Assembly: GCA_032718475.1 (NCBI GenBank) | Contig: JAUCBJ010007313.1 | Location: forward strand, 1 to 40,133 | Length of the DNA: 40,133 nucleotides | Source: Nemertoderma westbladi | Taxonomy: Eukaryota; Animalia; Xenacoelomorpha | Direction: 5' to 3' | Shown: one piece after another, positions 1-31,900 of the stretch | Position numbering within the stretch: position 1 is the first letter of the stretch | Layout of the letters: each line of letters opens with the position of its first letter | Translations under genes and position numbers: made by a program | Notes under the pieces: model-generated | What the model was told of the DNA's origin: nothing | Database searches by the model: none | What the model saw: the letters and a program-made list of their open reading frames with translations, nothing else

Positions 1-36
1 AGGTTAAACTGCTAAAGGTCTTCAAAAGCGCGAACA
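1..36 (+). mobile_element. 3' terminus of an LTR related to the BEL/Pao element (3' LTR or solo LTR, rest outside window)
   Basis: AGGTTAAACTGCTAAAGGTCTTCAAAAGCGCGAACA closely matches the LTR end GGGTTAAACTGCCAAAGGTCTAAAAGCGCGAACA at 3252 and 19429; followed directly by minisatellite sequence. Confidence 0.85.
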
Positions 37-1983: not shown

Positions 1984-4900
1984 CTGTAGGAAATTTAATA
2001 AATAATAATGAAATAAAATATACTAATTGGTGTTTCAATATGTTAAAAATGAAAATTAAAATATATTTTTTTAAAAATGATATTGTAAAAGCTTTTGTGG
2101 AATAACTGATTCGTTTGCCTTGCTAACCAGTTCCCCCCCAGTCGCTAGAATACTCTAAAAAGGGATATATAACTCGAATAGCACAAGCTACCGGCTGATT
2201 GGCTGATTCGCTGTGCGAAGGGATCTGGGCTACGTTTGATTGTCCAACTAGCTTGGGAAAGTATCTCCCAATAGAATTTGAGTTGATTTTGATTTCGACC
2301 TATCACAGGTCTACTGAACTGAATTTTCCTATCTTTATGCTCTTTCTCTGTGTTGGGTGGAAGCCTTTGTAAATAAGGTTATTCTTATCAGTTTTCAGTG
2401 TTGTTGGTCTTTCTTTCCTGAGCCAGGAGAGAACGGCTTGTAAATATTTTGTGCTTTTCTGTTTTAGTCTAACACTAGTAGGCTTAATTATAAAGGGCAT
2501 ATATCCGTTATCACAACAATCAACAACTCAAAACAAACTAATGAACTTAACGCACACTGAATCACTGTGCATACTTTTATATTGTTATACTGCTATTTAC
2601 TGTCAGTTCTTCATAATATGGTTGATGAATTATTATATTTGGAATAACGATAAATAACCCCGAAACCCAATATTCTTGATATACCGAAGGTAAGAGAGAA
2701 AGGTTACATATAACGATTGTGACTTATGTTAAAGTGGTTTGAAGTGAATCTAATGTTATTTGATAGACCCTACATGATTCGGTCCGTGTTCCTTTTATAT
2801 GTGACTAAAATCAGTGAAGATCGGCAGATTAGTGTGCAGTATTGTGCAGCATTGTGTATGAGTGAGACTGATAACGAAGCATTTCCTAAAGAATGCGCCA
2901 TATATGTGAATTATAACTAAGCCATATCGTTGTGAGTAGTTTAAGTCATAACTCTGTTTATATAGATAGAGCGCCACGTCCTAAAGGAACTGTTAATATT
3001 CCCCGAAGGTAAATAATATTGTCAGAGATTATATAATACTGTCAGTCGAATAATACATTAGGCTTATATAGCAATAAGATTAAGCCGTCGAACCCAATCT
3101 CCCGGGTATATCCAGCGGGTGAATGATCGCGCACAGATTGGTTTCGACTAGTGTAGTGAATTAAATACTTGTCATAGACTAAAAGTGATTTATTATCTAG
3201 AAGACATCATAATTTGGCGGGTTAAACTGCCAAAGGTCTAAAAGCGCGAACAATAACGGATATAGCTTTATTGCAGTAAGCAATAAAGTTGAAAGTACCG
3301 GTCAACCGGTAAACCTGAACGGTACTTCAGTAGGTCAGTAGGCCCAACTGTCCTAACCGGTACTTCCCGTATAAGTACAGCAGTATTATTCGATTTGATC
3401 TTTATATGCCGGTAGGTCTTAATAATTAATCGGGGACGCCTGGTTTTTATTGGGATTTTACTTAGGCCTATTTCTGTCAGTTTTATTTATTTGTAGGCCA
3501 GTATTGAACAGAAGGCGTGTAAGCCTGATCAGATTGTACAGACAATTTGTAGGTTGAACTGTTGTCTGATTGCTGTTAGGTCTGAACGGATTGCAGCGTG
3601 TGTAGATCATCTGTCCGATAAAGAACGGTTAGGAAGTAGGGGCAGCGAATGCTGTAAGGTAAACCCCCAACTAAAGAATAAGTCGTACTACTGGGTTAGA
3701 ACGCATACTACCTAATTATTTCGGAGTCTGCATGTCCTGTAGTTTATTTAGGCTTGAGAGTAGTCTGCCATCGTTGAGTCTGTACTTTGTTTGTGTAAGT
3801 CTGTACGGGTAGCGTATAATATTTATTTAGATAATTTGTAGGCTGGATAGTTGTCTGGCTGTTATTAGGTCTGAACGGATTGCAGCGTGTGTAGATCACT
3901 TGTCCGATAAAGAACGGTTAGGAAGTAGGGGCAGCGAATGCTGTAAGGTAAACCCCCTACTAAAGAATAAGTCGTACTACTGGGTTAGAACGCATACTAC
4001 CTAATTATTTCGGAGTCTGCATATACCGTAGTTTGTTTAGGCTTGATAGTAGTCTGTCAGTGTTCGGTCTGCATTTTGTTTGAGTAGTTTGTACGCGTAG
4101 CGTAATATTTATTATTCAGAGTTTATGCGATTATTCGCAACATTCATTCCCCAAGTTTGTTCCTACAGTAATTGTGTTTGTTATACATACCGCTATAGTT
4201 AAATTAACCCCGGTACTACACGGGCTGCTTGGCGTAGGTAAAGACTGGTGATTTTGTGCATCGGTCACTCCAGCAGATGCCGTGGTTCTTTTAGCTGTTC
4301 AAGTATATTTAACTACAGATTATATGTTATACAAGTACTCGTACCTAATTTAGGGTTTAGTGTACAGTGCTTTCCGAAAGTAATTAGTGTAGGCATTACA
4401 TTTGTATTGTAAAGTGGTTGATAGGCACGTTCGATTAGCTCTATTAACTTCTAGGTAGGAACACTCCGTGATACATAACGTAGAACCTATAGCGATACGG
4501 CTATAGGTCGTCAGGTGGTGGTATTTTCCTATCTGGACAACGCAGTGTATTTACTACTACGTATTATTTTCAAATACCGCAGTACCCTGTCCGTTGTAAT
4601 AACCAGATACTAACCCTTTGTTAGGCTGGTTTGTAGACTTCTTGTAAAATTACCCTGAAAATTCGTATTTTGTGTTTTTTGTAAATTTTTGTGTTTATTT
4701 AGAGATTGTAATCTCACCCGAATTGTACGTAATTTGTAGTATTAAGTAACTTAGGTAAATTAGAATTATTTGTTTTAGTGTCCTATAAGTAACACTTCAC
4801 TGAAAGCGCACCGCTTTGTGTAGTGATTACTCCCCAGAAATAATAACATTTATTTCAAACATTGAAAAAACCCATTAAAACGGGTATATATATATTATAA

Positions 4901-7900
4901 ATCAAATCTAACGATTTATAAATAGTAGGCCTACCATACAACCATTAGGTCCCCATATCAGTTGGTCTACTGCTCAAATAGCAGTAATAAAGTAAGTAAA
5001 GTAACCAAGTAACCCTAAAATTCAGAAATTCAATTATTTAAAATAATTGATATACCGGTATTCCCAATAGGCCTATTATCTTTATTTCTATAAATCTAGG
5101 CTGAAATTATACCGGTACTTGTAATTAATTCTATTCCAGAATTATACATACTACAAACTGTAAGCTGTATACCGGTATTCCCGATAGGCCTATTATATAT
5201 TTATATATATTTGTGCTAAAATTATACCGGTATTCTGTGATAAACCTAGTCTGTAATAATACTTATATAGTTATATAAATACTATAAGTATACCAGTGTT
5301 CTAATATATTATATATATATCCTACTACACTGAGTAGCAGTATCGGTAATTAATTACTAGGCTAGCAGCTAATACTGAGTTACTAGACTTGCTCAGACTG
5401 TAATACAGCAGTAGACATTCAACGGTATACATAGACATGTCTGATACTAAGCAGAACCTGTCAGACAGTTTATTAGATGTAACTATCTGCGACTCAGATA
5501 GAGGCGTAGAACCGTCTGGTCGTAAGTTCAGTTCACCTCCCACTGTGAGGAAGGTCATCCCTCCTGTAGTAATAACCGAACCTAGGCTGGTCCAACATCG
5601 TAGGTTTATCATAGGCACTCGAGCTCAGGTCAAGCGGGACCAAGAAGCAGCAGAACAGCAACAACCCGCGAGACAAGAACTTATTTCTCAGCGGCCCAAC
5701 AGTTCCAGTAGTGATGATACTGTAGAGCTGACACCCGAGCGCGGAGCGAAGATGACGGATGCGGTTTATTCGGATCCCCTTCTCATCCTTCCTGCAGCCG
5801 TACTCACCAGGTTATTGATCGCTGTGGAAGAACACCAGATCGATTGGGCGAGAAGCCAGCGTTCAACTAGAGATAGTTATGCTGGATACACAAGAGAAGA
5901 ACTGAAGTCCATAGTCGAGTCGCAATGGAACTTCCCCGGACCCGGACTCCCGTTTGATTTATCCGAAGCTGCCTGGGAAGACATACACCGGATGGGAGTA
6001 GCCAAGGAAACCATCGATCCAGCTGTGTGGAAGAGGTCCGCAGCCGGATACGCACAGGGATTCTTCAGCTCTATGGAGCGAGTAGAAAAACAACTGTTAC
6101 AACAACCTCAAGGACCTCAAGAGCAGGGACAGCTGCTTTATCAAGTAAGAGAAAGAATTCTACGAATCAGGTTAATATTATCGGCCTTTGAGGAGGCTTC
6201 TAAACGAAGACAAGACACGTCGTTGCAAGTTGCCATAAAAACTTGGTTTCAACGGGTGAGTCGCCAGGTGCAAGGAACAGCTCAGTGGAAAGCTCAGCTG
6301 GAGGAGCGCTCAACCCATGGAGAATCAACAGACGCTACTTATTCCCAAGTGGAAAGTGAAGCGACGGCAGAGAAACCGCATAAGAGGGATGCCATTGACA
6401 TCTATCTGTCGGACTATCAACGTTTTTTAGGTAATGACGAGTTGAGGAGAAGGTTAGAGGGACTTAGCCCTAATAGTGAAGGAACCAAGCTTGTGTTGGA
6501 TGCCATCGATGTGGAAATGAGGGCTGCGAATCAGGCTAAATTCGATGAACAACTCCGCCTGACACGAGTCCAAGAAGAGCAAGTAAAGAAAAAACGCATA
6601 GAAGACAGAAAGAAAGCGGCAGTGGTAGCTGCAGAAGCAGAAAGAAAAGCGGCAGCGGCAGAGGCAGCAGCAGAGGAAAAAGCGGCAGCGGCAGCGGTAG
6701 CGGCAGCGGCAGAAGCAAAGGCGGCCGAGGCTGAGAGAAAGGCCGCAGAGGCAGTGGCAGAAGCCGAACGGAGAGCGACTGAAGAAACCACCCAATTAGA
6801 ATTGGAAAACATTCAGGAGAATCAAGACTGCATAAATAAACAGTTAACAGCTAGTAATATGCAGATGATGAATCGATCTACTCCCAAAAGACAGAGATAT
6901 ACATCATCTGAGGAAGGCGATACCACCGATACTGAAGGCAAGGGAAATAGATCTCGTCTAAGTAGACGTAAAAGAACATTCCACCGTCAGAAATTGCCTG
7001 ATTTGCCTCCAGCTGTTAGAAGGCAACTAAATAACACCAACTTAGGTAGTACAGAGCCCACAGACCAAATAATTAAAATAGAAAGACTCCCTACTATAGT
7101 AGATGAGCCTGAAATAATTAGGCCTGTTCTTGAAATCACCCCTTCGGTGATAGACACACCTGTGCTCCCTGAAACTACCTCTAAATTCCCTCTGCATAGC
7201 ACTAAGCTACCTGTGCCCCGTAGAACTGCCCAGGGGACAGTTCAGGTCCTGGACCCCGAGCGAAATATTCATAATTTGTCGCCCGTTGTCCCTCGTCCGC
7301 CCGCTACAACGTTGGCGACTCCCGCTTCGGCGGTCGAATGGGTGGACGAGGGACGGCGGGGGATGGATATCCTGCTCGGGCAGATGCAGGAGACTGTCCA
7401 GCAATTCAAGGGCACAGTAAGGGAAAGTAGGCTAGAGTTGCAAGAAGTGCAGCAAAGTATCGCGCTAGAACGCGATAAATTAGTAAATACTCAAAAGGGT
7501 ATACCGCCACCCTCTGTAACAATGTGTCAACCTGTTAGGTCTGAAGTATCTCATGCGCAAGGTGTGGAGCCTACACGCATATATACTGCTAGTGAGGTAG
7601 AAACTCCTATAGTGAACCCTATTAAGGGTAATTATAGACCTGTTGATAATGACATTCCCTATAGAACTGATCATAATCCGAGAAATGTATATACCGATAA
7701 CTCGATATTAAATAACACGATGGCCCAAGAAAGTTTTACGCGTCAAATGGCTAGAACCGAAGCCCGGCAAGCGGTAAAGGTGGGAGAGATCGTCAAGTTC
7801 AATGGAGATGAGATGAAATGGTTACCTTTTAATGAATATTACAAAGATAACATACAGAACTCTGTACTATCTAATGGAGAAAAACTTAGATACCTCATCG

Positions 7901-10900
7901 AGTGCTTGGAAGGATCTCCCAAGTTAATGGCGTTAAAGTTTATTGGACATCCAGACGGATTAAGACAAGTTTGGGACACACTAAACATCAGGTATGGTAA
8001 TAGGAATAATATCGCTAAGTATTTATATGCAAAATTAGTAGCGCCCAGAAAGTTCATCAGCAGTGGGATAATAGAGTTTTCCGATGAGATTCAAGAGATC
8101 TGTAGACAATTAGATTGGTTAGGTAAGTCTCATGAATACCAAAGTTCTATGGTTATTGGAGCTGTGGCTTCTACTTTACCGAAAGGTGGGGTAGGCACAC
8201 GCTGGGATAAGAAAGTACTATATATGATGGAACAACAACGACGAGACCCTACCATGACTGATCTCATGTCATTCTTGGATGGAGAAGTGAAATTGCAACT
8301 CCTCAAGCAGTCCCGAGAGAAGACACCGGAAAACAAGGTAAGTGAAAAACCCGTCTCTAGGAGAAAGGTAACACCAGTGTGTTATACAGACGACGGCGAA
8401 AGCCAGACTTCTCAAGGAGAAGATAGCGGGAAAGACACTGATAGATCTTATTATGTCAATAAAATGCCTAAAGATCAGGTAAGTAAATTCAAGTCTCGAG
8501 CAAATGACAGGAGAGAACCGATAAGAAAAACTCCTCCCACGTCTCCCAAGAGAATTCAGGTGAGAAAGCCCGAAGAAAAGGCAAGTGTACACAATGTGAC
8601 TCAGAATAAGGTAAGTAACATCAAACCGAAATGTGCGCTGTGTGACGGGACCCACCATTTGAATAGGTGTGATGAATTTCTAAAGAAATCATTAACGGAG
8701 AGACGCGAAGTTATGTGGGATAAGCGGTTATGTTATAATTGCCTCAGACAAGGACACCAACGGCGAACCTGTTTCTCTGACATAAGGTGTGCAAAGTGTG
8801 GTGCGAAACATCATATCTTGTTGCACACTGAATTCGATCGAAATAGTCCGAATCAGGTAAGTGATTCCGAGCTACATGTCCAATTCAGTGATGTGAACGA
8901 CACTGATCAATCTGAGATGGAAGGATTCTATACAGACGAGTTCTCCTACGAAAACGAATCCTGTTACATGATAAATACCGCAGTGTATCGAGCACTCACC
9001 TATGAAAAGGATACAGACAACGACTTCACTCTAACTACTTCAGAACGACAACCATCTTGGAAAGAGCCATCTTCCAATGTAGGGATCCGAGAGTTTCCTG
9101 TGGTGCAAGTAAGGGTTCACGGACCTAAGAGGAGTTATGTAGTGAACGCCCTCCTTGACTCCGGTAGTACAGGAACATTCATCGACAAAGAGCTAGCCGA
9201 AGATATATTTGCTGGACAACCCAAGTTCCAAACTAAGCTCAATATGTCCGGCATTATGCAAGTTTGGAAATCTACAATAACAGCTGATTATTATGTAGGC
9301 GCGTTGTCCACCCCACAAGATGAACTAGGAGAACACAGCATAAGGTCAGTAAAAATGGTGGCTATAAAGAACTTCGCTACTACTCAAGCAGACCTTTATA
9401 ATTGGGACGAGGATGAGAGCATCCAACATCTTAACATACCTCGATTCCAGACTGATTATCCTGGAGTACAAATACTCATCGGCCAAAACGCGCATGAGGC
9501 GCTGGAGACATTAGAGAAACGGCCTGCTCAACCGCAGCCACTACAGACCTATGCGGTAAGAACTAGAGTAGGTTGGTACTTTACTGGCCCTTCCCGTAGA
9601 ACACTCAGAGAAAGACTACCGCCAGACAGCGTATGCCAGGTGAGTGAATGGGAAGATGATACCAGTGAGGGAGACAACTTAACTGAGGGAACTCCATACT
9701 CCTCAGATAATGACGACGTTCACCAGCTTTTTGATGAGGAGAATACCATCGATCTCCTTAAGGAAAACGAGGCTTGGCAGAACCAAGTGAACTTATGTCA
9801 ACTTCTCTATCCATCTGAACGAGAAGCTTATAACGACGAGTTAAATGACGTCATTGAGCGTCATAATGCCAAGACTCGGGATGAACATGCCGTACGATTC
9901 TTTACGCAAGAGGCGGTAGAGCCCAATTCCTACGATAAAGCCTTGTCGGTGGAAGAGGAAAGGGCCAAGCAGATCCAAGAGACAACTACACGTTTCCTCA
10001 AAGATCAAGGTAGGTATGAAGTCGGTCTACCTTTCCGCAAGAAAGAACCGAAGTTCATCAATAACAGACCTTTGGCGGAAAAAAGAATCGCGCAACTCCA
10101 TCGACGCCTTACGGCTAATTCTTCAGCTAAAGCAATGTATCAAACACAGCTGGAAAAATTTATTAGTAAGGGATACGCGGAGAGAGTACCGGAAGAAACA
10201 CCTGTGACTGAAAGAACGTATTACTTAACTCACCATTACGTTCCTAAACCCGGTAAGACACACGAAGTGAGAGTAGTGTTTGATGGCTCCGCTCTTTACA
10301 TGGGTCAATCCCTTAACTCTGAATTGTTACCCGGACCCAACTTGCTTCAATCTTTGTTGGGAATTCTTTTAAGATTGAGACAATATTCGATTGCTTTCGC
10401 CTCCGATATAGAAGGCATGTTCTTACAAGTCAAGGTGTTAGATAAGGATCGAGATAGTCTACGATTTCTGTGGTGGCCCAAAGGAGACCTCAACCAGAAA
10501 CCGGTGGAGTACTGGATGACCATCCAGGCCTTTGGGATAATCTCAAGCCCTTCCAACGCCTGTTCGGTAGTGCGTACCACTGCAGAGGACAACAGAGAGG
10601 CCTTCTCTAAGGAAGTGATCGACAACATCAAGAGAGACATATACATGGACGACAATCTGAAGTCCCTTCCATCAGTTGAGGAAGCCATTGAGGTCGCTAA
10701 AGGAACGGTAGAGTGCTTAAAAAGAGGTGGTTTTCGATTAACAAAATTCACCAGCAACTCCCGTGAGTTTCTGGAGTCGATCCCCGCGGAAGATCGAGGG
10801 GCGAAAGATCTAGATTTGATCAAAGATGATCTGCCAGAAACCAAGACACTCGGCTTGAAATGGGACACAGAGCGAGATATCCTGTTTTTCCAGCTAAAAC

Positions 10901-13900
10901 AGCGAGATAATCCAGTTCGAACAAAACGGATTTGCTTAAGTATACTGAGCACTTATTTCGATCCATTGGGATTTATTAGCCCAGTTATATTGATTGCTTG
11001 TAGCTTGGTACAACAAATGTGGCTTGAAAACCACTCATGGGACGATCCACTTAAGGGAGAATTATTGAAGAAGTGGATGGAATGGGAAGATTCTCTGCCG
11101 GCTATCGAGGATTTTATAATTTCCCGTTCATATTTTGGTCATGTTCTCCCTACGTATTCCTATCAACTCCATGTGTTTGGAGACGCCAGCGATATGGGAA
11201 TAGGTATAGTAGCCTATCTAAGGGTAGAAACTCCGGATGGAATCAAAGTCGCCCTGGTTACTTCTAAGGCATTAATCAACAACAAGTTGAAAGTTCCTCG
11301 AGCGGAGTTAAAAGCGGCTCTATACGCTACAGCCATCGGCCGGAATGTAACAGAACAGATTGACTATCCATTAGAGAAAACTGTCTATTGGACCGACGCT
11401 TTACTCGTGTTAGAGTATATAACCAATGAAGTCTGTCAGTTCAGCGTCTTCGTTACCAACAGGGTAGCCATCATACTTAGTCGCACGACGATGGACCAAT
11501 GGAGACATTGCCCCGGAACGATTAACCCAGCAGACATCGCTTCCAGGGGAGCGACTCCAAAGGAATTGGTAAATACTCCCGAATGGTTAGGAGGACCTGA
11601 CTTTCTCTACAGAGAAGAAGAAGAATGGCCACCCCATCTCACAACAGCAGAGATCAGACAGGCCAAGGGAGCGGAGAAAGTTAAACCCAAAACTCGAGCG
11701 AGTAAATCGAAGTTGTTTAAACCTGCGGTTGATCTATCTGTATTATTTACTTCCGGAGAGGATGCTTTGGATCAGAAACCCACCGCCATGACTAAAGAAG
11801 TCTTGGAAATCCGTGACAAGGATTGGAAATCTGGAATACCAGATATTTCGCAAGGACTCTCACCTCTCTTGCAGAGAGCGATACGTCACTACAGTTCCTG
11901 GAATCGGCTCTGTAAAGCTGTCACCTATCTGAAACGATGTTTTCATCATCGTTACTCCGGGACAAAGACCAATAGTGATGATGCTCCATCAACATCTGCA
12001 CGAGTCCATGTTGTTAAAGACCTTCCCCAATACAAGATATCCGACAGGTTTCTAAAGGAGAAGATCAGTTACCAGGAGCATGATGAAACCAACAAACAGA
12101 TGCTGAGACTCCTACAATGCTATGAGGATTCCGATAAGTATTTCCTGTTATTAAGAAATCCACAGATGCGCTTAAGGGATCGCTTCTCTAGTACCATGAT
12201 AGATGGGTTAATACGTGTTGGAGGTAGACTGACCAACGCCCCATTATCCTTTGACACTAAGTTTCCCATCCTCATTAGAAATCTTGACATACAAATCAAG
12301 ATAATTGTAGATGTTCATAGCAAACTGTACCATGCTGGTAGAGAACGAGTTCTGAGCGAAATTCGAACTCGCTACTATTTTTATAAACCCCGTAGGGCTC
12401 TGAACCAAGTTCTTAGGAACTGCATACCCTGTAGGAAAGCATTCAGTAGGCCTTTAACACAGCGAGAGGCAGAATTACCTAGGGAAAGAGTAAGCTTCTA
12501 TGAACCACCCTTTACTAATACCGGTGTGGATTTATTTGGCCCTATTGAAGTATATCGTGCCCGGACTATAGTCAAGAGATGGTGTGTCATCTTCGTTTGT
12601 ATGACTTGTAGAGCTATCCATCTCGATATGGTAAACGATCTATCCACCAACAGCTTCGTGTTGAGTTTACGACGACAGATTGCTCGCTTCGGAACCAGTA
12701 ACACGATGAGATCGGATAAGGGAACGAACTTCATTGGCGCCAACAACGAAATTCAAGCTTACGTAAAGGACTGGAACAAAAGACAGGTGGACGATCAGCT
12801 AAGGATAACAGCGTCTAGCTGGACCTTCAACGCCGCCGACGCCCCTTGGTGGGGAGGAAGTTGGGAGAGATTGATTAGGAGCGTGAAGACTGCGTTCCAC
12901 TTTATTGTGCCTTGTCGCGCTTATCTCACCGACGAACTATTGCGGACGTTAATGGAGGAAATCGCCGCCTATCTCAACGAAAGACCGCTTATGCCAGTCT
13001 CTTCAAATCCTGATTCCCTGGAAGCGCTAACACCCGCGCACTTTCTACTGAAGAAACCCGTAGCCATGCTCCCACGATCGGAGATCACAGACGGAGACGA
13101 GTACTGCCGTCGAACCTGGCAACTTATGCAGTTGCTATCCCGTCGTTTCGCTGACCATTTCGAGAAACATTACCTGTCCACTCTACAACTTCGAACTAAG
13201 TGGTTTGCGCAGCAAGAAAACGTCAGCTCTGGAGACATGGTGCTTATTGTGGACCCCGATCTCCCACGTAAGCGATGGCAAACAGGTCGTATCATCAAGA
13301 CGCATATCTCGAGCGATGGTTTGGTGCGATCAGTAGAGCTCGTCGTCATGCGGCGGAACTTTAAGAAACCAGGGATAGTCTTTGAGACTCAACAGCTCAA
13401 TCGCCCAGTGGGTCGTTTATGTTTACTGGAAAGAGACAGAGAGCTCTCCGGAAACTATGGAAGGCAAGAAACTCTTCCCACGACCACTTCCCTAATCCAA
13501 CCGACATCTAGGGACTCCCCAACTTAATATCGTTCGGAGTGGGCGTGTGACCCTATTATTTTATATTATTTTTATTATTTTTATATTTATGTATGTATTA
13601 CTATGTAATTTTATTATAATCGTTTTATTTAATTTAGTAGAATATTATTTAGCGATTATTTTGTAGAATAGTGCAATATATTCGTGTTTATTACGTACGT
13701 AATTACTTATATTATATTTAGTGCGACGGCGAGAAATAATAATTTTTTCTCTTTCCTTACTGTCCGTATTATATTATAAATACGTAACTACAGTAAGATG
13801 AAATGTACGTACTTATTAAAGTACAATAAAGCCACTACTATATTTAAGTATTATTGGTAGGCAGAGTATTAGGAATGCAAAGTTCAGATCCTCGTGTCTC

Positions 13901-16900
13901 GGCTAAACCAAGCTCTGGGTAGACCTTGGAAACGACTTGCCTCTTCACACTGACATTGCTTCGTGCGATATTGCTCTCATACCGTATATTAAATAATACA
14001 TATAGTAGCGTGATGTCCCTTTAACAGTAGCGTATAACGCAAAATAAATCTGTTAAACCCTTTGACCATCTGTAATTCTAGTCGATTAAGATATCGCGGC
14101 ACCCACCGATATACTTGAAAGACAAATTCTAGAATCAGTGGTTAACGTCCCCAGACAAGTTCTGGAATAAATCGGTGCCCATCTCAAATATTAATTATTT
14201 AATATTTGCAAATCTAATAAATCAAAATCTGTAAATTCAGATCCTTCAACAATTCTAGTCAATTAAGATATCGTAGCATTTACCGATATTCTTAAAAAAG
14301 ACAATTGTCATAGAATTAAGGATCTTGTGTCCCTAGACATGTTCTAGAATCAAAATATGTCCATTTAATTATCAAATAATAAAATTTCAGGGAATAAATT
14401 TAAATTCATGCCTTTTAATGAATTTAATAAATTGCCATTTTTACGCAATTTATAACATTCCCAAAATTCCATTAATTAATAGATCAAGGGAGCGGAGATT
14501 TATCTTATTATGCATATGAGTGTGCGAAAGTCACCCAAACATAGTCAATAGCCGATAAAATTCATAAAGTCATGTATAGAACAGAACATTGACTATTAAA
14601 GAATACTATTAAATAACATCCCAGATCTGTATGCATTGGAACTACCCTAATTCTACCGCTAGCTTTGCATAATGTCACCATAGCAACAACCACGATAGAA
14701 TTAGAATTGAGTTAAAAGAACAATAGAAAGCTTGTCCCATTGAATAGCATAGGGAATAAATAGCGCACTACTAGTATCCAAGGATACATAATAATACAGT
14801 GACATTCTGGAAGGCATTGACTAACGGACAAATGGCCCGAATGTGCGTAGTTGTGACCAGTTGTGTGGTATTTGTGAGTTTATAGGTGAATGTTACTGCT
14901 AAAGTGTGTTTACAGTAGCTAGTCGCAATCGTAAAAGTAACCTAACTCTCCAAGGAATACCTGAAGTACATCTAAGCCTTTGGGACGGACAGTTGAGTGA
15001 CTTGTGCCGGTTATCGTTGTCGTTGTACGGCTACGTCGTTGGCGAAAGTATAGCGACAGCGGTACATCGGCGCTGAGAATCTCATACTGTCCGGGGGCAA
15101 GGGAGAAATAGGCAGCGACGCCCGCTCGCCTAACAATATATAAACTCATTATAATATTGGTGAACTCGTATAGCAGATATGACTGAATTAATAGAAGATG
15201 ATCTTGGTATCAGGGAGAGATATACTCTACCTTTACAAGCGTTTGTCGATAGCTTGATACGCGGCGACGCTGATCCAACTACTACGGAGGACGATGGTCG
15301 TTATATCGAACCGCCAATGTCCCAGGAGCAACTTACGCGTGAATTGGACTATAGAAAATTCACTGCTCGCTATACACATCGTAATGGTACGTATATGGAC
15401 TTCTTGACCACTGGTCATCCTATTGATTTACACGACACCGACGATGTCGATACCGAAAGGGAAATGGTTTTATTTAAATATCATACCCAGCGGAGTCGAA
15501 ACGATAAATCGAGAATAGAACACGAGAACTCTATTCGAAATCAACTCGAAGGATAGAACGTGGAAGAAGGTTGATGCGAACAAATAAAGGAGAACCACTG
15601 GAGAAAAGACATGGGTTAATGTCCAGGGTCCATAATGTGAATAGTTTTCCCCGGGGCACGGGTGCTCGCGGGCGGTCTCCTTCGGGAGGCTGTAACTTTC
15701 CCTTCCTTCATCGTTTTCCTGTAATTATTGTGATCAGTGTCACAATTAAAAGGCAGGAATGAATGATGATGTGACGGAAAACACATCCATTGTGGTATCT
15801 TATGGATACTATCGTATATCCTCCCTCCTCGCTACTCCTCTTACCCTCTTATATGTTGTTACTAAAGATACGACATATTTCATCCCACCTTCTCTTCCAA
15901 CGTGCTCGGAGCTTCGGGAAACGAGCACTAAACCTCCCATCCCTTACTGTTCATCTGGATGCTAATATTAGTGTCCGCACCTCCTGTCCATGTCATATTC
16001 TGTTGATATTTATGATATCAACTTCCACCCTCTCGTTCTTGATTAGATAATCAGCCACTTCCTAATTTCCTCAAGTCCACAACCGTGAAACAAGGACTGA
16101 AAGGACACGAGGATAGTTTGTGAACAACTGGTACCATTATGTGTCATAAATCTGGTTGTTCACCTCCCTTAATGATTGGGGATATAAATCTTATGTAGAA
16201 CAACTGAGGCAAACATATCCTTGAACTGGTTGTTCCCTCATCACACTGGGGATAAATTCAGTTGGAGATAGTCCTCGAATGTAACAATCCTCCTACTGAG
16301 ATCGTATTTCGGAATATTTCTGAATACGACATAGGTCTTCCCCTGCTCTTTACCACTACCATCACTGTCACTGTCGGAAAACATATTGGGCATACAACAG
16401 GAATATGGAGAACATTCCATACCCTTTCGTTGATACTCAGCTGATTGCTCCTTGGGCCGAAGGCCGAGGTTTCTTTCGCACTATGTATGCCAATACACCC
16501 AGCGACATTACTAAAGTACAACGGACGTCCATCGGACATCTTGCCTTTCAAGAATATGGATGGAACTTCAAAGTTGGAAATCCTATCAATTACCAGCAGG
16601 TATATGGAGATCATTACTCCCGTTTATATTTTGACGGACCATTAACTGCGCCTGGTGCAGTATATAGCTTTATGAGTGTTCCACTTCGCCCTTCCTTAGC
16701 TATATACACGATCTTTGAAAACGCAGCACTTGCCGGTTGGCTAGCCGATGTGTGCAGTCGTACCATACGCGCTCACCCGTTAATACTTGGAACTAAACTC
16801 GCCAAGTTAGACGAACATAATAAGTTCATACGTTTCGAATGTTTCCGGTGCTTTCTGACTCCGTTCCGTAACGTCAATAGTCAGTTCAAGGACCGCGCGC

Positions 16901-19900
16901 TGACCAAACTCAGTCTGAGAGACTCGGCTGCGGAGAAACTGAGTAGCGCTGGATTTGCCGTGTTTCAAGACGTTTGTATACAGAACTCACATTCATCTGT
17001 TATACAAAGACCCCGAATACCTACAGGTTATTCTGTCGTGGAAATACAGACAGTGGATCCACTTACTGAGACAGACGCACCCACTTCGTCTATACAACTG
17101 GAGGATGAACCAGTGTGCTTGGAATCAGAAGCGATTCAGCCTACAACTTCCTGGAGCAGTGACAATGATTATGTCATAGAGTGGTATCAAGGTCCACAGC
17201 GTCTCACAGCGTACGATTATCGACACGCCAACTACGTTTCTCGAAAACGTTGTCGATTATGCGCATCGAGAGACCACTTCATTCCTCTAGACTCGAGCGT
17301 ACCTTGTTCCTATTTCCTCGAACAACCGATGATGGAAATATATTGTGCTTATTGCCGGCTTAATAACTCTCATATATTTGCCGTCTGCCCACAATTTATG
17401 ACTCAATGTCACTACTGTCAATTTAAAGGACATGAAAGTTACAATTGTCCCTTTAATCGCGATTTAGAGAGCGTAGACGAGATGATCACCCTGCGATACA
17501 TCCGAGCTTGGGAAGCGAATGCCGATTTACATTGCGAATCCCGACATCGCTATTACCCTGGACGAGCTTACGAGGGAGTTTACGCGTTCCATCCTTATCT
17601 ATTCGCGTCGATTGAACAGAAAACACGCGTACCAAGTTACGAGTTAATGAAGCGTGTTGGTGAGTGTATTTCCACCAAGTTTGTCAGGAAATACCTTAGA
17701 AACGTTAACCCTAATGATATAACCACATATCACCTGATCAATTTTATCCGTCAGGAAGCCTGAGTATGGCGACATCTTTGTGAACTCGCATCCTGAACTA
17801 CAGGAAATATCTCGGCGACCATATGAATATCGAACCCGAGAACGCGAGCTGGAGAGAACCATTAAACCGAGAAAGTTCCTCACCACTCACGGTCCACCCA
17901 CCGTTAGTGTCCAGACGACCCGTCAAGGACCCGTAGGAGCTGCTGTCTTGAGACGCGCTCTAAAGGCCGTTAGACCTCACTCCACTGAGGTTGATATTAA
18001 TCAACCAGGTACTTCGACCGGCGGGTATACCGATCGTAACCCTGCACCTTCTGATGCAATTATATTGCACCCTTCGCCTAGGAGCTACAGCCCTCCTCGT
18101 AAAGTGGCTCGCCCCAAAGAGAAAATGACTCTTGCTAGCTTTAAAAAACTGCATAAACGCCGTCCGCGCAAGAAAGACTAACTGTTTAGAGTATTTATGT
18201 ATATTAGAAATTGTGATTTTGTATATTTTATAGACTTAAATCCCATTTTCTGGGAGCGGTGTAAAAGCTTTTGTGGAATAACTGATTCGTTTGCCTTGCT
18301 AACCAGTTCCCCCCCCAGTCGCTAGAATACTCTAAAAAGGGATATATAACTCAAATAGCACAAGCTACCGGCTGATTGGCTGATTCGCTGTGCGAAGGGA
18401 TCTGGGCTACGTTTGATTGTCCAACTAGCTTGGGAAAGTATCTCCCAATAGAATTTGAGTTGATTTTGATTTCGACCTATCACAGGTCTACTGAACTGAA
18501 TTTTCCTATCGTTATGCTCTTTCTCTGTGTTGGGTGGAAGCCTTTGTAAATAAGGTTATTCTTATCAGTTTTCAGTGTTGTTGGTCTTTCTTTCCTGAGC
18601 CAGGAGAGAACGGCTTGTAAATATTTTGTGCTTTTCTGTTTTAGTCTAACACTAGTAGGCTTAATTATAAAGGGCATATATCCGTTATCACAACAATCAA
18701 CAACTCAAAACAAACTAATGAACTTAACGCACACTGAATCACTGTGCATACTTTTATATTGTTATACTGCTATTTACTGTCAGTTCTTCATAATATGGTT
18801 GATGAATTATTATATTTGGAATAACGATAAATAACCCCGAAACCCAATATTCTTGATATACCGAAGGTAAGAGAGAAAGGTTACATATAACGATTGTGAC
18901 TTATGTTAAAGTGGTTTGAAGTGAATCTAATGTTATTTGATAGACCCTACATGATTCGGTCCGTGTTCCTTTTATATGTGACTAAAATCAGTGAAGATCG
19001 GCAGATCAGTGTGCAGTATTGTGCAGCATTGTGTATGAGTGAGACTGATAACGAAGCATTTCCTAAAGAATGCGCCATATATGTGAATTATAACTAAGCC
19101 ATATCGTTGTGAGTAGTTTAAGTCATAACTCTGTTTATATAGATAGAGCGCCACGTCCTAAAGGAACTGTTAATATTCCCCGAAGGTAAATAATATTGTC
19201 AGAGATTATATAATACTGTCAGTCGAATAATACATTAGGCTTACATAGCAATAAGATTAAGCCGTCGAACCCAATCTCCCGGGTATATCCAGCGGGTGAA
19301 TGATCGCGCACAGATTGGTTTCGACTAGTGTAGTGAATTAAATACTTGTCATAGACTAAAAGTGATTTATTATCTAGAAGACATCATAATTTGGCGGGTT
19401 AAACTGCCAAAGGTCTAAAAGCGCGAACAGATATTGTTAGTAATAAATCATCTACGTTGGTAGAACAAGGATGATAAAGTGCTATATTGCTTATAAAGCT
19501 ATAGATAGGCCTATGATAAAGTGATAAAAGGACAATAAAGCGATTCGGAGAGCGATTCGATAACATATTGGTTCAATGTCAACCCTGTAAGTAATTCCCT
19601 ATACTGACTGCTTACAGACATTTGGCCTTGTCACTCCCCCTTTTTTTATAAAAAGGTAACAACTTTAAAGATTAACAAAATAAATTCAATTCAATTAATA
19701 TTGCTTGAAGGGATTCCTATTGGTTTGAGGGAATTTTTAAATTAAATAATTTAAGCAATTTAATTTAATTTCGCCAATAATTATTTTACAATTGATTAAG
19801 GCGGCAGTGTGTGTGCCGCCCATGGAGTTCAAAAGTGAAAGATTTAAAAAGTGCGAAAATACTTAAAGGCGGCAGTGTGTCGCCTTTTAGGGTAGGATAA

Positions 19901-22900
19901 GTAATAATATGGTTTATCATCTTTATATAAAAATCTCTGGTACGAGAAGAAAATAATCCTTGGTCCGATCAAATAATTTATTTTTCTTGGTCCATTGGGA
20001 GGAAAAATTTATGTAATTTATCTTTGTTACGCAAAGGGTTTTAAAGGCGAGATTTATTTTCAATAAAATAAATTATGATGACAACTTTAATGACTGAATT
20101 AATGACTCACTGATACAAATCCTTAGAGAATATGGGACAGTTGTCGTTCTGATCTGCTACATTTATAGTAACTGTTGTTGTTCCTGTAAGTATCTTTGGT
20201 GTTGTCTGATCTCTTTCAACCCCCTTATCCTTCGCTATTACCTTAAATGTTATCTGTAAAGGAAGACACAAATATGGTGTTGGGTATAGGGCAGGCCGAA
20301 AAATAGGTAGGCTGAAATATAGAGATGTAGGCCGAAATATAGAGATATAGGTAGGCCGAAAAATAGAGATATAGGTAGGCCGAAATATAGAGATATAGGC
20401 GGAAAAATAGCGATATAGGTAGGCCGAAAAATTGAGATATAGGTAGAAATATAGAGATATAGGCTTAAACATAAAGATATTCGTACGCCGAAAGATATAG
20501 GTAGGCCGAAATATAGATATATAGGCCGAAAAATAGAGATATAGGTAGGCCGAAAAATAGAGATACAGGCCGAAATATAGAGATATAGGTAGGCCGAAAA
20601 ATGGAGATATAGGTAGAAATATAGAGATATAGGCTTAAACATAAAGATATTCGTACGCCGAAAGATATAGGTAGGCCGAAATATAGAGATATAGGCCGAA
20701 AAATAGAGATATAGGTAGGCCGAAAAATAGAGATACAGGCCGAAATATAGAGATATAGGTAGGCCGAAAAATGGAGATATAGGTAGAAATATAGAGATAT
20801 AGGTAGGCCGAAAAATAGAGATACAGGCCGAAATATAGAGATATAGGTAGGCCGAAAAATGGAGATATAGGCCGAAAAATAGAGATATAGGTAGGCCGAA
20901 ATATAGAGATATAGGCGGAAAAATAGCGATATAGGTAGGCCGAAAAATTGAGATATAGGTAGAAATATAGAGATATAGGCTTAAACATAAAGATATTCGT
21001 ACGCCGAAAGATATAGGTAGCTCGAAACATAGAGATATAGGCCGAAAAATAGAGATGTAGGCGGAAAAATAGAGATATAGGTAGGCCGAAAAATAGATAT
21101 ATGTAGGCCGAAACATAAAGATATAAGTAGACCTAAACATACAGATTTAGGTGGAAAAATAGAGATATAGGTAGGCCGAAACATAGAGATATAGGTAGGC
21201 CGAAACATAGAGATACAGGCCGAAATATAGAGATATAGGTAGGCCGAAAAATGGAGATATAGGTAGAAATATAGAGATATAGGCTTAAACATAAAGATAT
21301 TCGTACGCCGAAAGATATAGGTAGGCCGAAATATAGAGATATAGGTAGGCCGAAACATAGAGATATAGGTAGGCCGAAACATAGAGATATAGGTAGGCCG
21401 AAACATAGAGATACAGGCCGAAACATAGAGATATAGGTAGGCCGAAAAATAGAGATACAGGCCGAAATATAGAGATATAGGTAGGCCGAAAAATGGAGAT
21501 ATAGGTAGAAATATAGAGATATAGGCTTAAACATAAAGATATTCGTACGCCGAAAGATATAGGTAGGTCGAAACATAGAGATATAGGCCGAAAAATAGAG
21601 ATATAGGCGGAAAAATAGAGATATATGTAGGCCGAAAAATAGATATATGTAGGCCGAAACATAAAGATATAAGTAGGCCTAAACATACAGATTTAGGTGG
21701 AAAAATAGAGATATAGGTAGGCCGAAACATAGAGATATAGGTAGGCCGAAACATAGAGATATAGGCGGAAAAATAGAGATATAGGTAGGCCGAAAAATTG
21801 AGATACAGGCCGAAATATAGAGATATAGGTAGGCCGAAAAATGGAGATATAGGTAGAAATATAGAGATATAGGCTTAAACATAAAGATATTCGTACGCCG
21901 AAAGATATAGGTAGGCCGAAACAGATATATAGGCCAAAAAATAGAGATATGGGTAGGCCGAAAAATAGAGATATAGGTAGGCCGAAACATAGAGATATAG
22001 GTGGAAAAATAGAGATATAGGTAGGCCGAAAAATAGATATAAGTAGGCCTAAACATACAGATATAGGTATGCTGAAAGATGAATAGGTAGGCCGAAACAT
22101 ACGTAGGCCGAAGATATAGGCCGAAACTAGATATATAGATGGCCGAAACATAGAGATATTGTTGACCGAAAACAGAAAAGGCTCTAATTCCAAATTAGTT
22201 TTAGTTTAAAATAAAAAAATGTGAAAATTAACCTTTTTTTCTTCTTCGTAATCCAACAACCCTGGTCCAGCTCTTAGATAACCATCAGCTGTCATATAGA
22301 ACACCTCATTGGCTCGCACACCGTCCAATGAGGTGGAGTCAATACTGTACTCAACCTAAAAATATTCATAATAAATTTGTTTAAATTATTACTATATATT
22401 AAGAAACTCCCTTGTTTATTGGAATCCGATAAACTCAGACATAATATATAGTTGAATTAGAAATGAACTCAGATAAGATGTATGTCAGTGTGTTGGATAA
22501 TTGGATATTTAATTGGTCTATGGTGTTTTGTAGTTTGTGAGGCTTAAAGACTCTAATGTATTTTAGATTAACTCGATAAGACAGGATGTATGTAATGTAG
22601 CACTTTATACGACATAAAATGGTATTATTTTATACAACACTTAAAGATACTTTATGAAACGGGTGAATGATTTAGCCAAGATAAAAATATGTTAATAACG
22701 AAATTGACATTGGTCATGTATTTGCTTTTACTTATGCATACTTTTACTGAATAGGTGAGTAACCTGTGAGTTGACGTGTCCAGGTTTATCAGCATCCGTA
22801 GCAACGAGAGGCAGAACCAAAGACGAGACAGGTCGGTTCTCCTGCACAGACTTTGTGAAGGTAGTCAGTCCAAAATCGGGTGTGTTGTCGTTGATATCCT

Positions 22901-25900
22901 TGAGAATAACTTGTACTGTAACATCGGTTGTTTGCTGGTTAGGTGGAGTACCTTTGTCCTTGGCCTGTATCTTAAGGTTGTAGACTTCAATCTAGGGAGC
23001 CAATGAAATCAGGAAATTAGTAAAATTAGGCATAAAAATACTACCCATTTTTTTCAAAGCACCAAAATGTAACTGGTAAACTTAACCGTAAGTGCTACTC
23101 TATGCCTAGGCTAAGGGCGTACGGTACACACAGGTATGGGGACAGGGATATAATTTCGAATCTGGAATCTTTTAAGCAATTTTTATGTGAATTTTTGGTT
23201 TCGGGTTGACCAACTAAATCAACAAAAATAAAACTGACTCAAATTTACAAAAATATTATGTCAGCCTGCGTTTCCAAATTGGACAGATTTGAAATCAACA
23301 TTACCGAACCGGTATGTGCAGTCCTACGGTAAAGATGACTAATTTATTTATATGCTAAAAAAAAGTAAATTTTCTTCGGCCGCTAGGCCTGGGATTACGC
23401 ACAAAGTCTGACGACTTATTTCCAGTGCGGTCCCCCCACAACTTTACTCACCAGAGGAAACTCAGTACTCATTTAGCTACTATTTAAGAATGCAAGGCAG
23501 AGATGCGCCCTGGTTGGGACCTTTAAAGCATTCGTGCCGAAACGAAAACTGCCCTGGCCCATGTGAGGCTCGAACCCACGACCTATAGGAGATATGAATT
23601 CAATGCAACCACTACACCAAGGTGGAACCTACATCGATGTACAAGGCTGGGATAACTCCCTCTTGAAATGACTCCCTAATCATCTCAGCCTAGGCTGAAA
23701 ACACTCCCCTTTGGCTGAGATGACTCCCCTTTGGCTGAGATGACTCCCCTTAGGCTGAGAACACTCCCCTTAGGCTGAGATGACTCCCCTTAGGCTGAGA
23801 TGACTCCCCTTAGGCTGAGAACACTCCCCTTAGGCTGAGATGACTCCCCTTAGGCTGAGATGACTCCCCTTAGGCTGAGATGACTCCCCTTAGGCTGAGA
23901 TGACTCCCCTTAGGCTGAGATGACTACCCTTAGGCTGAGATGACTCCCCTTAGGCTGAGATGACTCCCCTTAGGCTGAGATGACTCCCCTTAGGCTGAGA
24001 TGACTCCCCTTAGGCTGAGATGACTCCCCTTAGGCTGAGATGACTCCCCTTAGGCTGAGATGACTCCCCCTTAGGCTGAGATGACTCCCCCTTAGGCTGA
24101 GATGACTCCCCCTTAGGCTGAGATGACTCCCCTTAGGCTGAGATGACTCCCCTAATTGAGTTATAGTTCATATCCATACCTGTGGTATTTTCATATATTG
24201 CAAAAAACTGTAACCTATGTTATTAGTTATTGTTTACTAGTTATTGTTTTGGTTAGAAAAGCCCGCCACTTTAACCTGTTCCTTTCCGTTAATTAAGAAA
24301 TCTAGGGAAAAAACTGGGCAGTGTTTTAGACTGAAAAGACTGGATGTTTGGTTAGGAGTTATCTCAGCCTGTTACACCGGATCGCTTGTTTATTGTTATT
24401 ATTACGGTTTTTATTCCCCGGACTTACCTTCTCCCTATCCAACTCGTCGGCCACTGTCGCGAACTTGACTCTGAATTCTCCGGTGGTCTTATCGATGGCG
24501 AACTGATCGAATCGCGGGTCGCCGCCCACAATAAAGTATTCAACGGCCCCGAAAGCGTTAGAAGTTCCATCGTCGTCTAAATCCGTCGCTTTTATGTTTG
24601 TCGTTATTGAGAATACTGAAAGCGGAGTTGATAATAAATTATTTTTTGACCCTGAACTTACCGGACAATCTCATATAGTAAAGTGATATCCTAATATATA
24701 TTACCCACTGCCCATGTTACAATAGTTAATCAATGTTGATAATACTATGGTAATAGGGGCTACCTACACTGTACCCGTACACTACTACTATAAGAGGATT
24801 CACCCAGGGACTGCAGAAACTTATGTATTAAAAGCAAAATAAAACAATTTTCAATTTATAAACACGAAGTCTAGAACCCGAGCATTTTGCAGATGAGACT
24901 TCGTAGGAATTCACAAGGTTGGTTTGTAGGGAGTCACTGGACTGGTTCGAAACCAGCTCACAGCAATAATTTGTCAATAAATTCAAACCCATAAGGTCCC
25001 ATTAAAAATAACCTGGCTAAGCCATTCAAAATCAATAGCATAATATTATTATATCACTGAAGTATATCTCTAGAATATTATTTCAGAAAATGTAGCAAAT
25101 TATAGCGTTATGACCTTGTTTATTATATTTGGCTCGCTTCGCTCCTGTAATAAAGAAAACCCACTCGTTTATGTACTAAATTTCACAAAAGTAAGTAAAA
25201 TTTATATAAATTTTAATTGTTATTATTGTTATCCCCAACCCTGAAGAAGATGAACTTAAAAGTTATAAATAAAGTAAAACGTACAACTTGGATCGTCTTC
25301 GAATACGTGGGTGTATATATACGGGGTGTTCTCGAAGATAGGGGCATTGTCGTTGCAATCTGTGAGATCGACGGTGAGATGCCAATCGGTGCTGGTAGTA
25401 ACCGGAAGGACACTCTGGGTGCACTTCGGGGTCTGGCCACGGTCGCACGCCTAAATGAGTCACAGAGATAATGCGAGCAATTATTGGTTGAGCGGAATAA
25501 ACTATAGATTATGTGTGACAATGTTAACAGGACTGTTTGTACTGCAGAAATAAGTACAGCAATGAGTCTGGCTTTGTTGTTAGGAGTGTCAACTTACCCT
25601 AGCAACCAATGTGATAGCTTTGTTGTTTGGAGGGTCTCTGTCTAGATTCGCCTTGACCACGCTCAACTCTCCGGTGTTGGGTTCCAGGAAGAAGTAGTTT
25701 CCAGGGTTGCTAAGCAACTTATACTCTACGTCACTATTCCAACCGGCGTAGGGCGGTGTCAGGGTCAGATCCCTTGGTCGATCTTTATCAGTGGCAATAA
25801 ACTGTAAGGCAATAAATATATGGTAGTTTTATAAGTTGGGCATATGAAGAATAAAAAAAATCTAACCAAAAAACTAAACCAAGTGTATGACATTATTGTA

Positions 25901-28900: not shown

Positions 28901-31900
28901 AAAGGGTACGCCTGTGATGGGATTAGTCCTGCAATTGCGCCACTAGAATATGGGTTATTTTCGGTAAAATTAACTTATCATTCGAGGTTAAGACCCCTGG
29001 ATCCCTTCCTATCATAAATGTAAATATGTTGAAGGTCGTCACCCGCTGGTCAAGTTAAAATAGAACCATATGGAAAGATATGGACTTGTTGAAAAATTAA
29101 CGCCGGGACCGGGATTCGAACCTGGGACCTCTCACAAAACTTCTTCCACTGAGCTACCCCAGCTCAGGAGCAAATTAATAGTTGAACAAGTCCATATCCA
29201 GGGAAAGCCCCAACCATCTTTCAATGTGGTTCTATTTGAACATTACCAGCGGGTGTGGGCCTTCAATTTTAATATGAAATCCATTGATACGATTGGTTGT
29301 AAGTATATATAATGTACATCCATGAACAATGTCAATGATTCATCTCAACCCAAATTATACAATATTTAGTTGTTAAAAAACATTATCATTCAACAAAAAT
29401 CTTACTTATCAAACTTTAATAATTTGATACAATTATTGTGTGTCGTGCCACATGGCCACGTGCCACATTAGAACTGCGGTAACTAGTCGCTACTTACCTC
29501 CCAAGGTCCGGGTGCACCCCCACAATGTGTCGGTAGGTTCCCCTTTAGGAGACTGTACGTTACAATGTTATTATTGTTGATTCCGCTATCGGCGTCAACA
29601 GCTTTAACAGTGATAGAAAGAGGTGTACCATCAGCGCTGGTCTCAAATATGTCTCCGTCATATCTGACAATAAATTAATTAACAAATTAATTGCTTATTA
29701 TTTTAGGTTTTGATTCTAGAACAGTTTCTTCCGTTGAAGTGTTTGTACGCCAGTTACTGCATAATTAGTTACCTGTATTGTTGAAAAACAGGCCTGTTAT
29801 CGTTGACATCAGTGACCGCAATGTTTATAACGAAGTCAGCAACCGTGGTGGCTGGGTCTCTGTTGTCATATAGTTTGGCATTAATGGTGTAGGAGTCCTT
29901 ATTAGTGGCCTCCCTGTCCAACGCTTGCACCAAATATAGTTTACCCCAATCGGCGGAAAGTTTAAACATTGCGTTATCCAGAGTGCCGGCTGCATCTTTA
30001 ACTGAGTCGATTCTGAATGTTAAATAAACGCTTATAGCTAAAGATTGAAAGCAAAATTAATAATTCTCGCTCAACCACCAAGGAGGAGGGAGATGAAACT
30101 ATCTCGGTTACAAATTTCTTGCAATCTCATTGAGATTTGTAGAACAATTTGGGTGGTGCCGGTACCTGAATAAATACACTATATTCCAGGATTGGAGTAT
30201 GCTGCAAAGGAAAGAGCAATCGGTTTTAATTATTACCAATCATTTTACACTGTTCTAGAACTTTCGATATGCGCGATTCTCCTAAATTCGTTACGTGTCT
30301 TTAGCATCTATTATATTTACAGGACATAACATAACCTATTTGAGTCGCAGAAAAAACCAAAACCTGTACTATAATGGTTCTATACTTTACCAAATGAAAA
30401 ATAAAAATATTATCGAATTTGTAGTACCTCCTACTTGAGTTAAACGGTAAAAAATAGAGGAAAATAAAAGTTGTCAGATATTCTGAATTATTCATTTTTA
30501 TATCTTGTTATATTTTCTTATAAATTTTAATTATTTATTTTCTGGTACTGAGTAACTCCTATATACTGTACTCTAGATCGGTAACACATTGTACTATACT
30601 AACTTCCATTGTTTCAACCCATGTGCCGCCCCTAGATTGTCTAATTGTCGGTCCAAATCTTTCATAGTTACACCACCGATGTCAGCAGGAACTTTGAGAT
30701 CAGCCAATAAACTCCCAACCGCCTTATTCTCCGGTACATTTAGGGCTATAGGGCTACTCGAGACTGCGGGGACATTGTCATTCTCGGGTGTAACATAAAC
30801 GTTAACCACTGCAGTCGCGGTGTACCTCGGGGTGGCACCGTCGTTGTCTACAGCAATGACACGGAACTGATATTCCATTGGTTTAGCGTCGAAGTCTACT
30901 TTGTTTGTCCCGTGGGTCTTTAGTTGGCAAGCTAGACCTGCGCCGCCAGTGTCTGCATGGAAACAGGTTCAAAGTGGTAAAAGGATAGCTAAGAAAATAA
31001 CATGATAATGTGCCGGTACTGAAGTAAATTAACAAAGTATATTTTTAGTACATAAATATTCAATACTTTATTATATTTCTCAATTCTTTATCTTAGATAT
31101 CCACAGATCTATAAAAGATTTTAATGCAAAATACATGAAAATAAAATAAGTTACTTGGTCAGTAATTAATTATGTGACTATTTTTAATTAATTAATTAAT
31201 TAATTATCAAAAACTGTATTAAAGATCTGATATTCTTTTTCATATAAGAACACAAGATATACATATATCATATTATATGAATGGAATGGGAAATCTTTTA
31301 GGCTCGTTAAGCCAAGGAATGCCTGTTCACCAAGGATTGCGTGATCTTCCACAGTAAATCCTTCCACTCTGTTTTCTAAATTGCCGTGGTTCCCATACAA
31401 AGTATTGCATATTATCATATAAGTTATACAAAAAAATGTGTCTCTAAATAATTATTTTGATACTAGTCTTATTGTATTTTAATAGAAGTATCATCTACAA
31501 GTAACACGTAGGCCTCACCTAAGACTTGAAACTCTGTTGCCTTCACCGTATCCGAGGGGTGTATGGAACATACAACTTTCGCGTGGTTTCCTGTGGCCGG
31601 GTCATCGTCATCTGTTACCGCCATGGTCGCTATGACAACGGTGTCCACGGGAACCGTATCAACAACACCGGCGATAAAGTAGGGGTTAGTAAATTGAGGT
31701 TCATGGTTATTTAAATCCTAAAATAAATGAATGACGAGTTAGCTAAGAGGGCTGTGAAGACTAGGCAGGTGATGAAAGGTGAAAATCAGGCACTCTGGAC
31801 GCTTGTAAGATCCAGCCTTTCCCAACAACTTGATTATTGGCTTCAATTGTGCTACCCAACTCAGGTCAAGGCTGCAGCAAAGAAGATGGATGAAGTGCTG

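Follow-up and report, generated by a model that had tools for sequence, protein, structure and literature searches.

A cluster of perfect splice-donor motifs in the gag region of a BEL/Pao retrotransposon from Nemertoderma westbladi

The stretch of DNA analyzed here, referred to as the window, comprises positions 1 to 40,133 of contig JAUCBJ010007313.1 (assembly GCA_032718475.1) from Nemertoderma westbladi. An LTR self-match, a 5-bp target site duplication and Pfam matches delimit an intact LTR retrotransposon, whose LTRs are 99.5% identical to each other, have TG..CA termini and are bordered on both sides by the duplicated GATAT. Its main features are listed below.

2084..19429, + strand: BEL/Pao LTR retrotransposon, 17.3 kb
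2084..3252, + strand: 5' LTR, with two donor-like sites (2690 and 3009) and two acceptor-like ones (2427 and 2468); AATAAA is absent and ATTAAA occurs once (3160)
3253..3264, + strand: primer-binding site of non-tRNA type, exact complement of LTR positions 2500-2511, candidate self-primer
5437..13527, + strand: single Gag-PR-RT-RH-IN ORF, 2696 aa
8632-8670, 8731-8772 and 8788-8826, + strand: three BEL/Pao Cys-His knuckles in Gag, seen in the sequence and scoring 65.8 bits against a profile of relatives
18260..19429, + strand: 3' LTR, with candidate acceptors at 18604 and 18645

The polyprotein contains the Pfam domains DUF1759, Asp protease, Peptidase_A17 (1e-34), Integrase_H2C2 and DUF5641, in this order, and the motifs YMDD and FGDAS are present. 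The integrase lies downstream of RT-RH and not before RT as in Ty1/Copia elements; the element thus belongs to BEL/Pao (Belpaoviridae) and is not a Copia element. A tRNA primer-binding site is usual for this group, but not diagnostic. Here, TGG is absent after the LTR, and 12 nt complement the element's own LTR instead. This candidate self-primer is similar to that of Tf1; in the present element it is contiguous and lies 32 nt past an acceptor-like site. The closest proteins share ~35-43% identity in Pol, and neither a single-protein scan of metagenome contigs nor an alignment scan of viral contigs yielded a close DNA relative. The polyprotein is ~600 aa longer than in most relatives, and Gag has an N-terminal extension of ~790 aa (5437-7800) without a Pfam family, which includes an Ala/Glu minisatellite (6600-6714).

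The 2.2-kb leader carries a 288-nt tandem duplication (90%) at 3540-4113. There are 18 ATGs between position 2500 and the start codon, in addition to the donor-like sites at 2690 and 3009, from which we infer that the element probably needs splicing anyway. The sequence at both of these sites (2687-2695 and 3006-3014) reads CCGAAG/GTAA, and both precede the only ATTAAA of the LTR, an arrangement that resembles the R region of foamy virus. Related LTR ends (75-91% identical) are found at both edges of the window (1-36, 39811-39889 and 39895-40133), and long tandem arrays occupy 37-2000 (67-nt unit), 20300-22200 (20-24 nt), 23600-24150 (20 nt), 31900-33200 (34 nt), 34200-36700 (48 nt) and 37400-38000 (35 nt).

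A preliminary description of this DNA had reported four perfect MAG/GTAAGT motifs around the knuckles (GT at 8338, 8479, 8611 and 8857), together with AAG/GTAACA (8368), CAG/GTGAGA (8560) and CAG/GTGAGT (9640). All of these positions were verified, as was their phase 0 in the polyprotein frame, and the sites are listed here with a near-perfect one that is missing from that description.

8120..8128 (GT at 8123), + strand: near-perfect donor TAG/GTAAGT, phase 1
8335..8343, + strand: perfect donor motif 1, phase 0, behind the capsid region, 967 codons upstream
8365..8373, + strand: weak donor-like AAG/GTAACA, two mismatches, three variable places in related copies, one of them losing the GT
8476..8484, + strand: perfect donor motif 2, phase 0, predicted U1 pairing of -13.7 kcal/mol, the best in the element
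8557..8565, + strand: one-mismatch donor CAG/GTGAGA, phase 0
8608..8616, + strand: perfect donor motif 3, phase 0, 7 codons ahead of knuckle 1
8854..8862, + strand: perfect donor motif 4, phase 0, 10 codons past knuckle 3, in a predicted hairpin loop (z -1.74)
9637..9645, + strand: perfect donor CAG/GTGAGT, phase 0, behind the protease

Two further sites were also not mentioned before: AAG/GTAGGT at 10010 (phase 1) and, with one mismatch, a site at 9345 (phase 2). The 8368 site was rejected as a real donor due to its two mismatches and the loss of its GT in one related copy, and is probably non-functional. On the plus strand of the 40-kb window, MAGGTAAGT occurs only at the four positions above, and on the minus strand once (24430); the antisense strand of the element is free of perfect donor motifs. 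The spacings of the four perfect motifs and the subsequent 9640 site are 141, 132, 246 and 783 nt. Donors lie directly behind the capsid, the last knuckle and the protease, and those at 8857 and 9640 constitute strong U1 sites at the Gag or protease border. Of all places in the element, these same donor motifs are predicted to pair best with the U1 end. When hairpin folding was compared with shuffles, motif 4 (11/200 shuffles) and the 9640 site (z -1.44) were slightly better, and the other three of the five donors folded no better than shuffled sequence.

The expectation of 0.004 motifs per 530 nt given in the preliminary description agrees with the value of 0.0045 calculated from the element's own codon usage. 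The analytic chance of a cluster of this kind anywhere in the ORF is ~1e-9, and four motifs were reached in none of 20,000 synonymous shuffles and in none of 20,000 codon-order shuffles. The polyprotein has five [K/Q]-V-S tripeptides, and each is encoded by MAG GTR AGT, a perfect donor. Apart from the Ala minisatellite, AGGTAAGT is the sole 8-mer that occurs four times within 530 nt of the ORF. The ORF as a whole contains 10 donor-like sites compared with 3.17 expected (4/10,000 shuffles). Less can be learned from the reading phase. A perfect motif in phase 2 of an open frame is impossible because it creates a stop, and phase 0 is expected for 66-69% of sites, so that the shared phase says little (the chance of 5/5 sites in phase 0 is ~0.13-0.16). 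The statement that all sites are in phase 0 holds for the seven listed originally, but it is weak as an argument; 8123 and 10010 are in phase 1, and we rejected phase 0 as strong evidence.

To provide a control, 79 DNA loci were reduced to 58 BEL/Pao loci (458 kb) by removal of near-duplicates; these are 28-44% identical to the query, many of them maybe from few hosts, and they were used as a control only. In 31 of the 58, the ORF is full-length and its knuckle zone can be read. [K/Q]VS is coded as a donor in 4 of 61 instances in the 58 loci versus 5/5 here (p 1.4e-5). The same loci contain 8 perfect motifs in sense and 8 in antisense orientation, with a maximum of 2 within any 530 nt. Sites with at most one mismatch number five in the knuckle zone of our element; 27 of the 31 relatives have none there, and four have one or two. 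An 8-mer repeated four times within 530 nt was found in one of the 31 related ORFs and is of the poly-purine type. Among 126 related proteins, four [K/Q]VS within 180 aa were never found, and three were found twice; the array is thus without counterpart there and not a family trait.

When 30 of the 31 related ORFs (L004-L070) were pooled, they showed 30 donor-like sites, as against 51.1 expected from synonymous shuffles (p 0.001). The exception is the distant BEL/Pao locus L052 (1539-6182), whose ORF has 10 donor-like sites, four of them perfect, versus 3.15 expected; this enrichment was reached in 1/10,000 shuffles, for one of 31 loci tested, and the sites are scattered over the ORF in phases 0 and 1. 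Including L052, all 31 ORFs have 40 sites versus 54.3 expected. The BEL/Pao group as a whole avoids donor-like motifs, and two elements, the present one and L052, are enriched in them. If the motifs are avoided in the group, retaining them likely has a use. The donor array is real and strongly non-random, and it sets the element apart from its relatives.

Closer copies were available in a sequencing run, X1, which contains the element (41% of words) and whose status as RNA is a guess. It is probably DNA, since coding and non-coding regions are covered alike and many diverged copies are present. Among 40 listed of 53 variable places in 8300-8890, none falls inside the four perfect 9-mers, and three fall in the 8368 site. 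For these 40 of 53 places, conservation of the four 9-mers has p values of 0.064 (all sites) and 0.16 (third positions). Among the places listed, which exclude those near the contig ends, motif 4 is unchanged in two contigs that differ at 14 and 18 of 138 places. The preliminary description had asked whether synonymous donor positions stay fixed: the listed places contain no variant, but this is not significant, and the variation in X1 agrees with conservation of the motifs rather than establishing it. The 594 contigs over 4150-19429 of this probable DNA run have no joint at any donor and none among the loose ends listed, and the 37 contigs over 8300-8890 likewise have no junction or listed loose end there. 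Of seven joints in the X1 contigs, none is at a donor and none is GT..AG as cut. Some contigs omit the pol parts 9716-11497 and 11681-13398 with ends that are not GT..AG and are probably internally deleted copies. Runs X2 and X3 contain almost none of the element, which is no evidence on its expression.

The following features were noted behind pol and in Gag.

8458..8463, + strand: AATAAA within Gag, 120 nt downstream of donor 1
13540..13794, + strand: candidate acceptor zone, U-rich AG-free stretches leading to AG and a phase-0 stop, putative exon starts at 13638 and 13794
13815..14760, + strand: internal cluster of poly(A) signals, with 8 AATAAA on the plus strand and 0 on the minus strand, 2.3 expected
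16324..17763, + strand: ORF2 of 479 codons (ATG 16405), with knuckle-like Cys/His motifs towards its end and a candidate acceptor in phase 0 (16441)

Past the pol stop, each of the first three stretches of at least 55 nt that lack AG leads to an AG and then a phase-0 stop (13638, 13794 and 14006), and the first two are U-rich. This pattern was noticed after the fact; 7 of the 83 AGs in the region after pol have a stop directly behind them. Further phase-0 candidate acceptors lie where the integrase region starts (11875), in ORF2 (16441) and in the 3' LTR (18604/18645). Our acceptor score was home-made, and antisense scores were equal or higher, so the sequence does not name the partner acceptor, and simple acceptor scoring was rejected as not discriminating. 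The sense-strand excess of AATAAA in 13800-14800 has a p value of 0.001; ATTAAA is also found in this region, and the LTRs lack AATAAA. The cluster is likely an internal terminator, which the genome RNA would have to read through.

Good support for the maintenance of the motifs as U1-type nucleotide sequences comes from the codon choice, the strand, the relatives as a control and the absence of a clear duplication (see below). For their function, we consider it most likely, by analogy, that the array works like the Gag splicing of copia and EVADE (EVD). We tentatively propose, with a probability of about 45%, that selected donors splice out pol to give a Gag-only or Gag-protease mRNA, which would probably end at the poly(A)-signal cluster behind pol. 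The motifs would then be U1-type 5' splice sites written into codons at the end of Gag and serving as alternative donors. Donor 8857 would yield Gag with knuckles (1140 codons), donor 9640 Gag plus protease (1401 codons), and donors 8338, 8479 and 8611 a knuckle-less Gag, which is perhaps regulatory. The partner acceptor might be located directly behind pol, where 13638 and 13794 both have a phase-0 stop immediately after them, or else within the 3' LTR. After joining to an acceptor behind pol, translation would halt at once and the RNA would end at the poly(A) cluster at 13.8-14.8 kb. Unspliced RNA would be the source of Gag-Pol and of the genome, and weak acceptors would keep splicing incomplete.

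This proposal draws on what is directly observed, namely that the motifs exist, are in excess, share one strand and lie at domain borders; selection that would keep the motifs, their presumed use and the putative partner acceptor are what we infer from the sequence. Alternative donors for Gag-only or Gag-accessory mRNAs had been suggested in the preliminary description; the idea is plausible and fits the candidate acceptor/poly(A) zone, but no junction was seen. Against splicing, one donor would be enough to make Gag, and three of the four perfect donors would drop the knuckles; also, the excess sites of L052, in two phases across its ORF, fit a phase-blind role better. A modular scheme, in which the donor array would give Gag without knuckles, with knuckles, with protease or fused in frame to ORF2 (16441) or integrase (11875), while most relatives purged such sites and the present element and L052 form a donor-rich class, appears distinctly unlikely to us.

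Drosophila copia produces a spliced 2.1-kb Gag RNA (10.1101/2023.05.27.542554; PMC5580714). As in copia, there is a single ORF, and splicing from a donor close to the end of Gag/protease could take out pol and yield excess Gag. Copia differs in that it belongs to another superfamily and that its one described intron, of 3 kb, stops near the 3' LTR, whereas the present element has five perfect donors, a candidate intron of 4-5.3 kb and 4.7 kb of extra sequence after pol. In Arabidopsis EVD, splicing is coupled to early termination, and a U1 site makes the shGAG RNA and blocks early termination (PMC5580714). The shGAG RNA of EVD and other Ty1/Copia elements offers parallels in the U1 site at the Gag/protease border, in the stop that splicing would create here and in the candidate internal poly(A) site before the 3' LTR (PMC5580714). 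In contrast to the present case, where the candidate terminator is ~5 kb from the donors, EVD has one short intron (~300 nt on average) with the terminator near (PMC5580714). In retroviruses, donors are as a rule strong and acceptors weak (PMC9143442).

The Max-element of Drosophila is a member of BEL/Pao. One of its copies gives GT-AG spliced reads beside unspliced RNA, which indicates that a BEL/Pao element can yield GT-AG spliced RNA; the accessible part of that report mentions no donor array (10.1101/2023.05.27.542554). Nothing on Gag splicing in BEL/Pao was found in the accessible parts of PMC9094657, PMC11599104 and PMC2678813, and no donor array within the gag of a BEL/Pao element was reported in the open-access literature searched. 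We regard the array as a possible variation on the known spliced-Gag strategy.

Instead of being spliced, the sites may bind U1 without splicing, either as decoys that occupy acceptors and so leave the genome RNA uncut, similar to the NRS of RSV, or as a local block of premature polyadenylation in A-rich Gag. We consider this rather unlikely. Perfect splice donors are normally productive. Still, several equal sites close together suit binding and explain the redundancy better than splicing does, and the same is true of L052 with its 10 sites along the ORF in phases 0 and 1. The AATAAA at 8458 is within the ~1 kb range of donor 1, and in EVD early termination is also blocked by U1 bound at the donor (PMC5580714). 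The NRS lies in gag and acts as a decoy donor (PMC9143442; PMC3082916). It resembles our sites as a U1-binding 5' splice-site sequence within gag coding sequence of purine-rich context, but there is one such decoy in RSV, which overlaps a U11 site and lies ~300 nt away from the real donor, whereas here several consensus-perfect sites lie kilobases from the leader donors. Suppression of polyadenylation was reported to be relieved at 462 nt in foamy virus and 1000 nt in HIV-1 (PMC3694450), but the main poly(A) cluster is at least 3.8 kb from the last strong site. The LTR of our element does resemble these viruses in that donor-like sites (2690 and 3009) lie upstream of a poly(A)-like hexamer (3160); the major splice donor there acts on the LTR with a reach below ~1 kb, whereas the Gag cluster is far from both LTRs (PMC3694450). 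Within 150 nt, donors precede 3 of 8 in-ORF poly(A) hexamers (p 0.17), so that a donor-to-poly(A) coupling is not significant. The earlier suggestion that U1 protects a very long transcript is the weaker reading.

We regard it as unlikely that the cluster is a neutral by-product, due either to an old duplication of a short peptide-coding unit in a disordered Gag linker or to rare chance in a very large scan. Such a duplication had been named in the preliminary description as an alternative, and we found no clear one that explains the cluster. Tandem Repeats Finder detects no tandem repeat in 8300-8900. The flanks of the four motifs are alike over 6 nt and 12 nt (0.46 and 0.38 versus 0.27 for random in-frame positions; p 0.003 and 0.007), but this likeness is gone with 30-nt flanks (p 0.09). 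The best 36-nt self-match, 24/36 between 8476 and 8608 (lag 132), was equalled in 11/200 codon shuffles, and the protein has another internal repeat at 6600-6714. An old duplication of this one pair of motifs is possible. It leaves unexplained the sites past the knuckles and the protease and the restriction of the identity to the donor core. The spacings given above and the position of sites on both sides of the knuckles also speak against a neutral origin, as does the chance of ~1e-9 per ORF. Moreover, a duplication of which only the donor core is still identical, synonymous bases included, points to selection. Finally, it is very improbable that the repeats are transcription factor sites (CAGGTA-type) of an enhancer inside Gag: short identical motifs in clusters are typical of enhancers, and CAGGTAA and TAGGTAA resemble Zelda/ZEB-type sites, but every site is on the sense strand, the U1 match of 9-10 nt exceeds such a motif, two sites begin with AAG, and nowhere else in the element is the predicted pairing with U1 as strong.

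BEL/Pao elements encode Gag and Pol in one frame, and the literature searched gives no account of how excess Gag is produced. The present element provides exact candidate junction starts (8338, 8479, 8611, 8857 and 9640) and an end zone (13.6-14.8 kb). If splicing applies, it would be a copia-like solution in a second superfamily. The donor-poor relatives and the two donor-rich elements suggest two ways of living with the host spliceosome.

The 4.7 kb of extra sequence after pol comprises ORF2 and two short ORFs. For ORF2, neither a Pfam family nor a homologue was found; there was one weak knuckle-region match, and atlas scores were <0.8. A role as a second BEL/Pao nucleocapsid was unsupported (-5.5 bits versus up to 8.2 for shuffles). 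The accessory region (15138-18181), which is thinly covered in X1, has a TATA-like box at ~15138 and ORFs of 130 codons (15164-15556) and 147 codons (17738-18181). Right behind the pol stop (13529-13545), a purine tract is followed by TGT. The two resemble the remains of a polypurine tract and the beginning of an LTR, and the 4.7 kb may have been added later.
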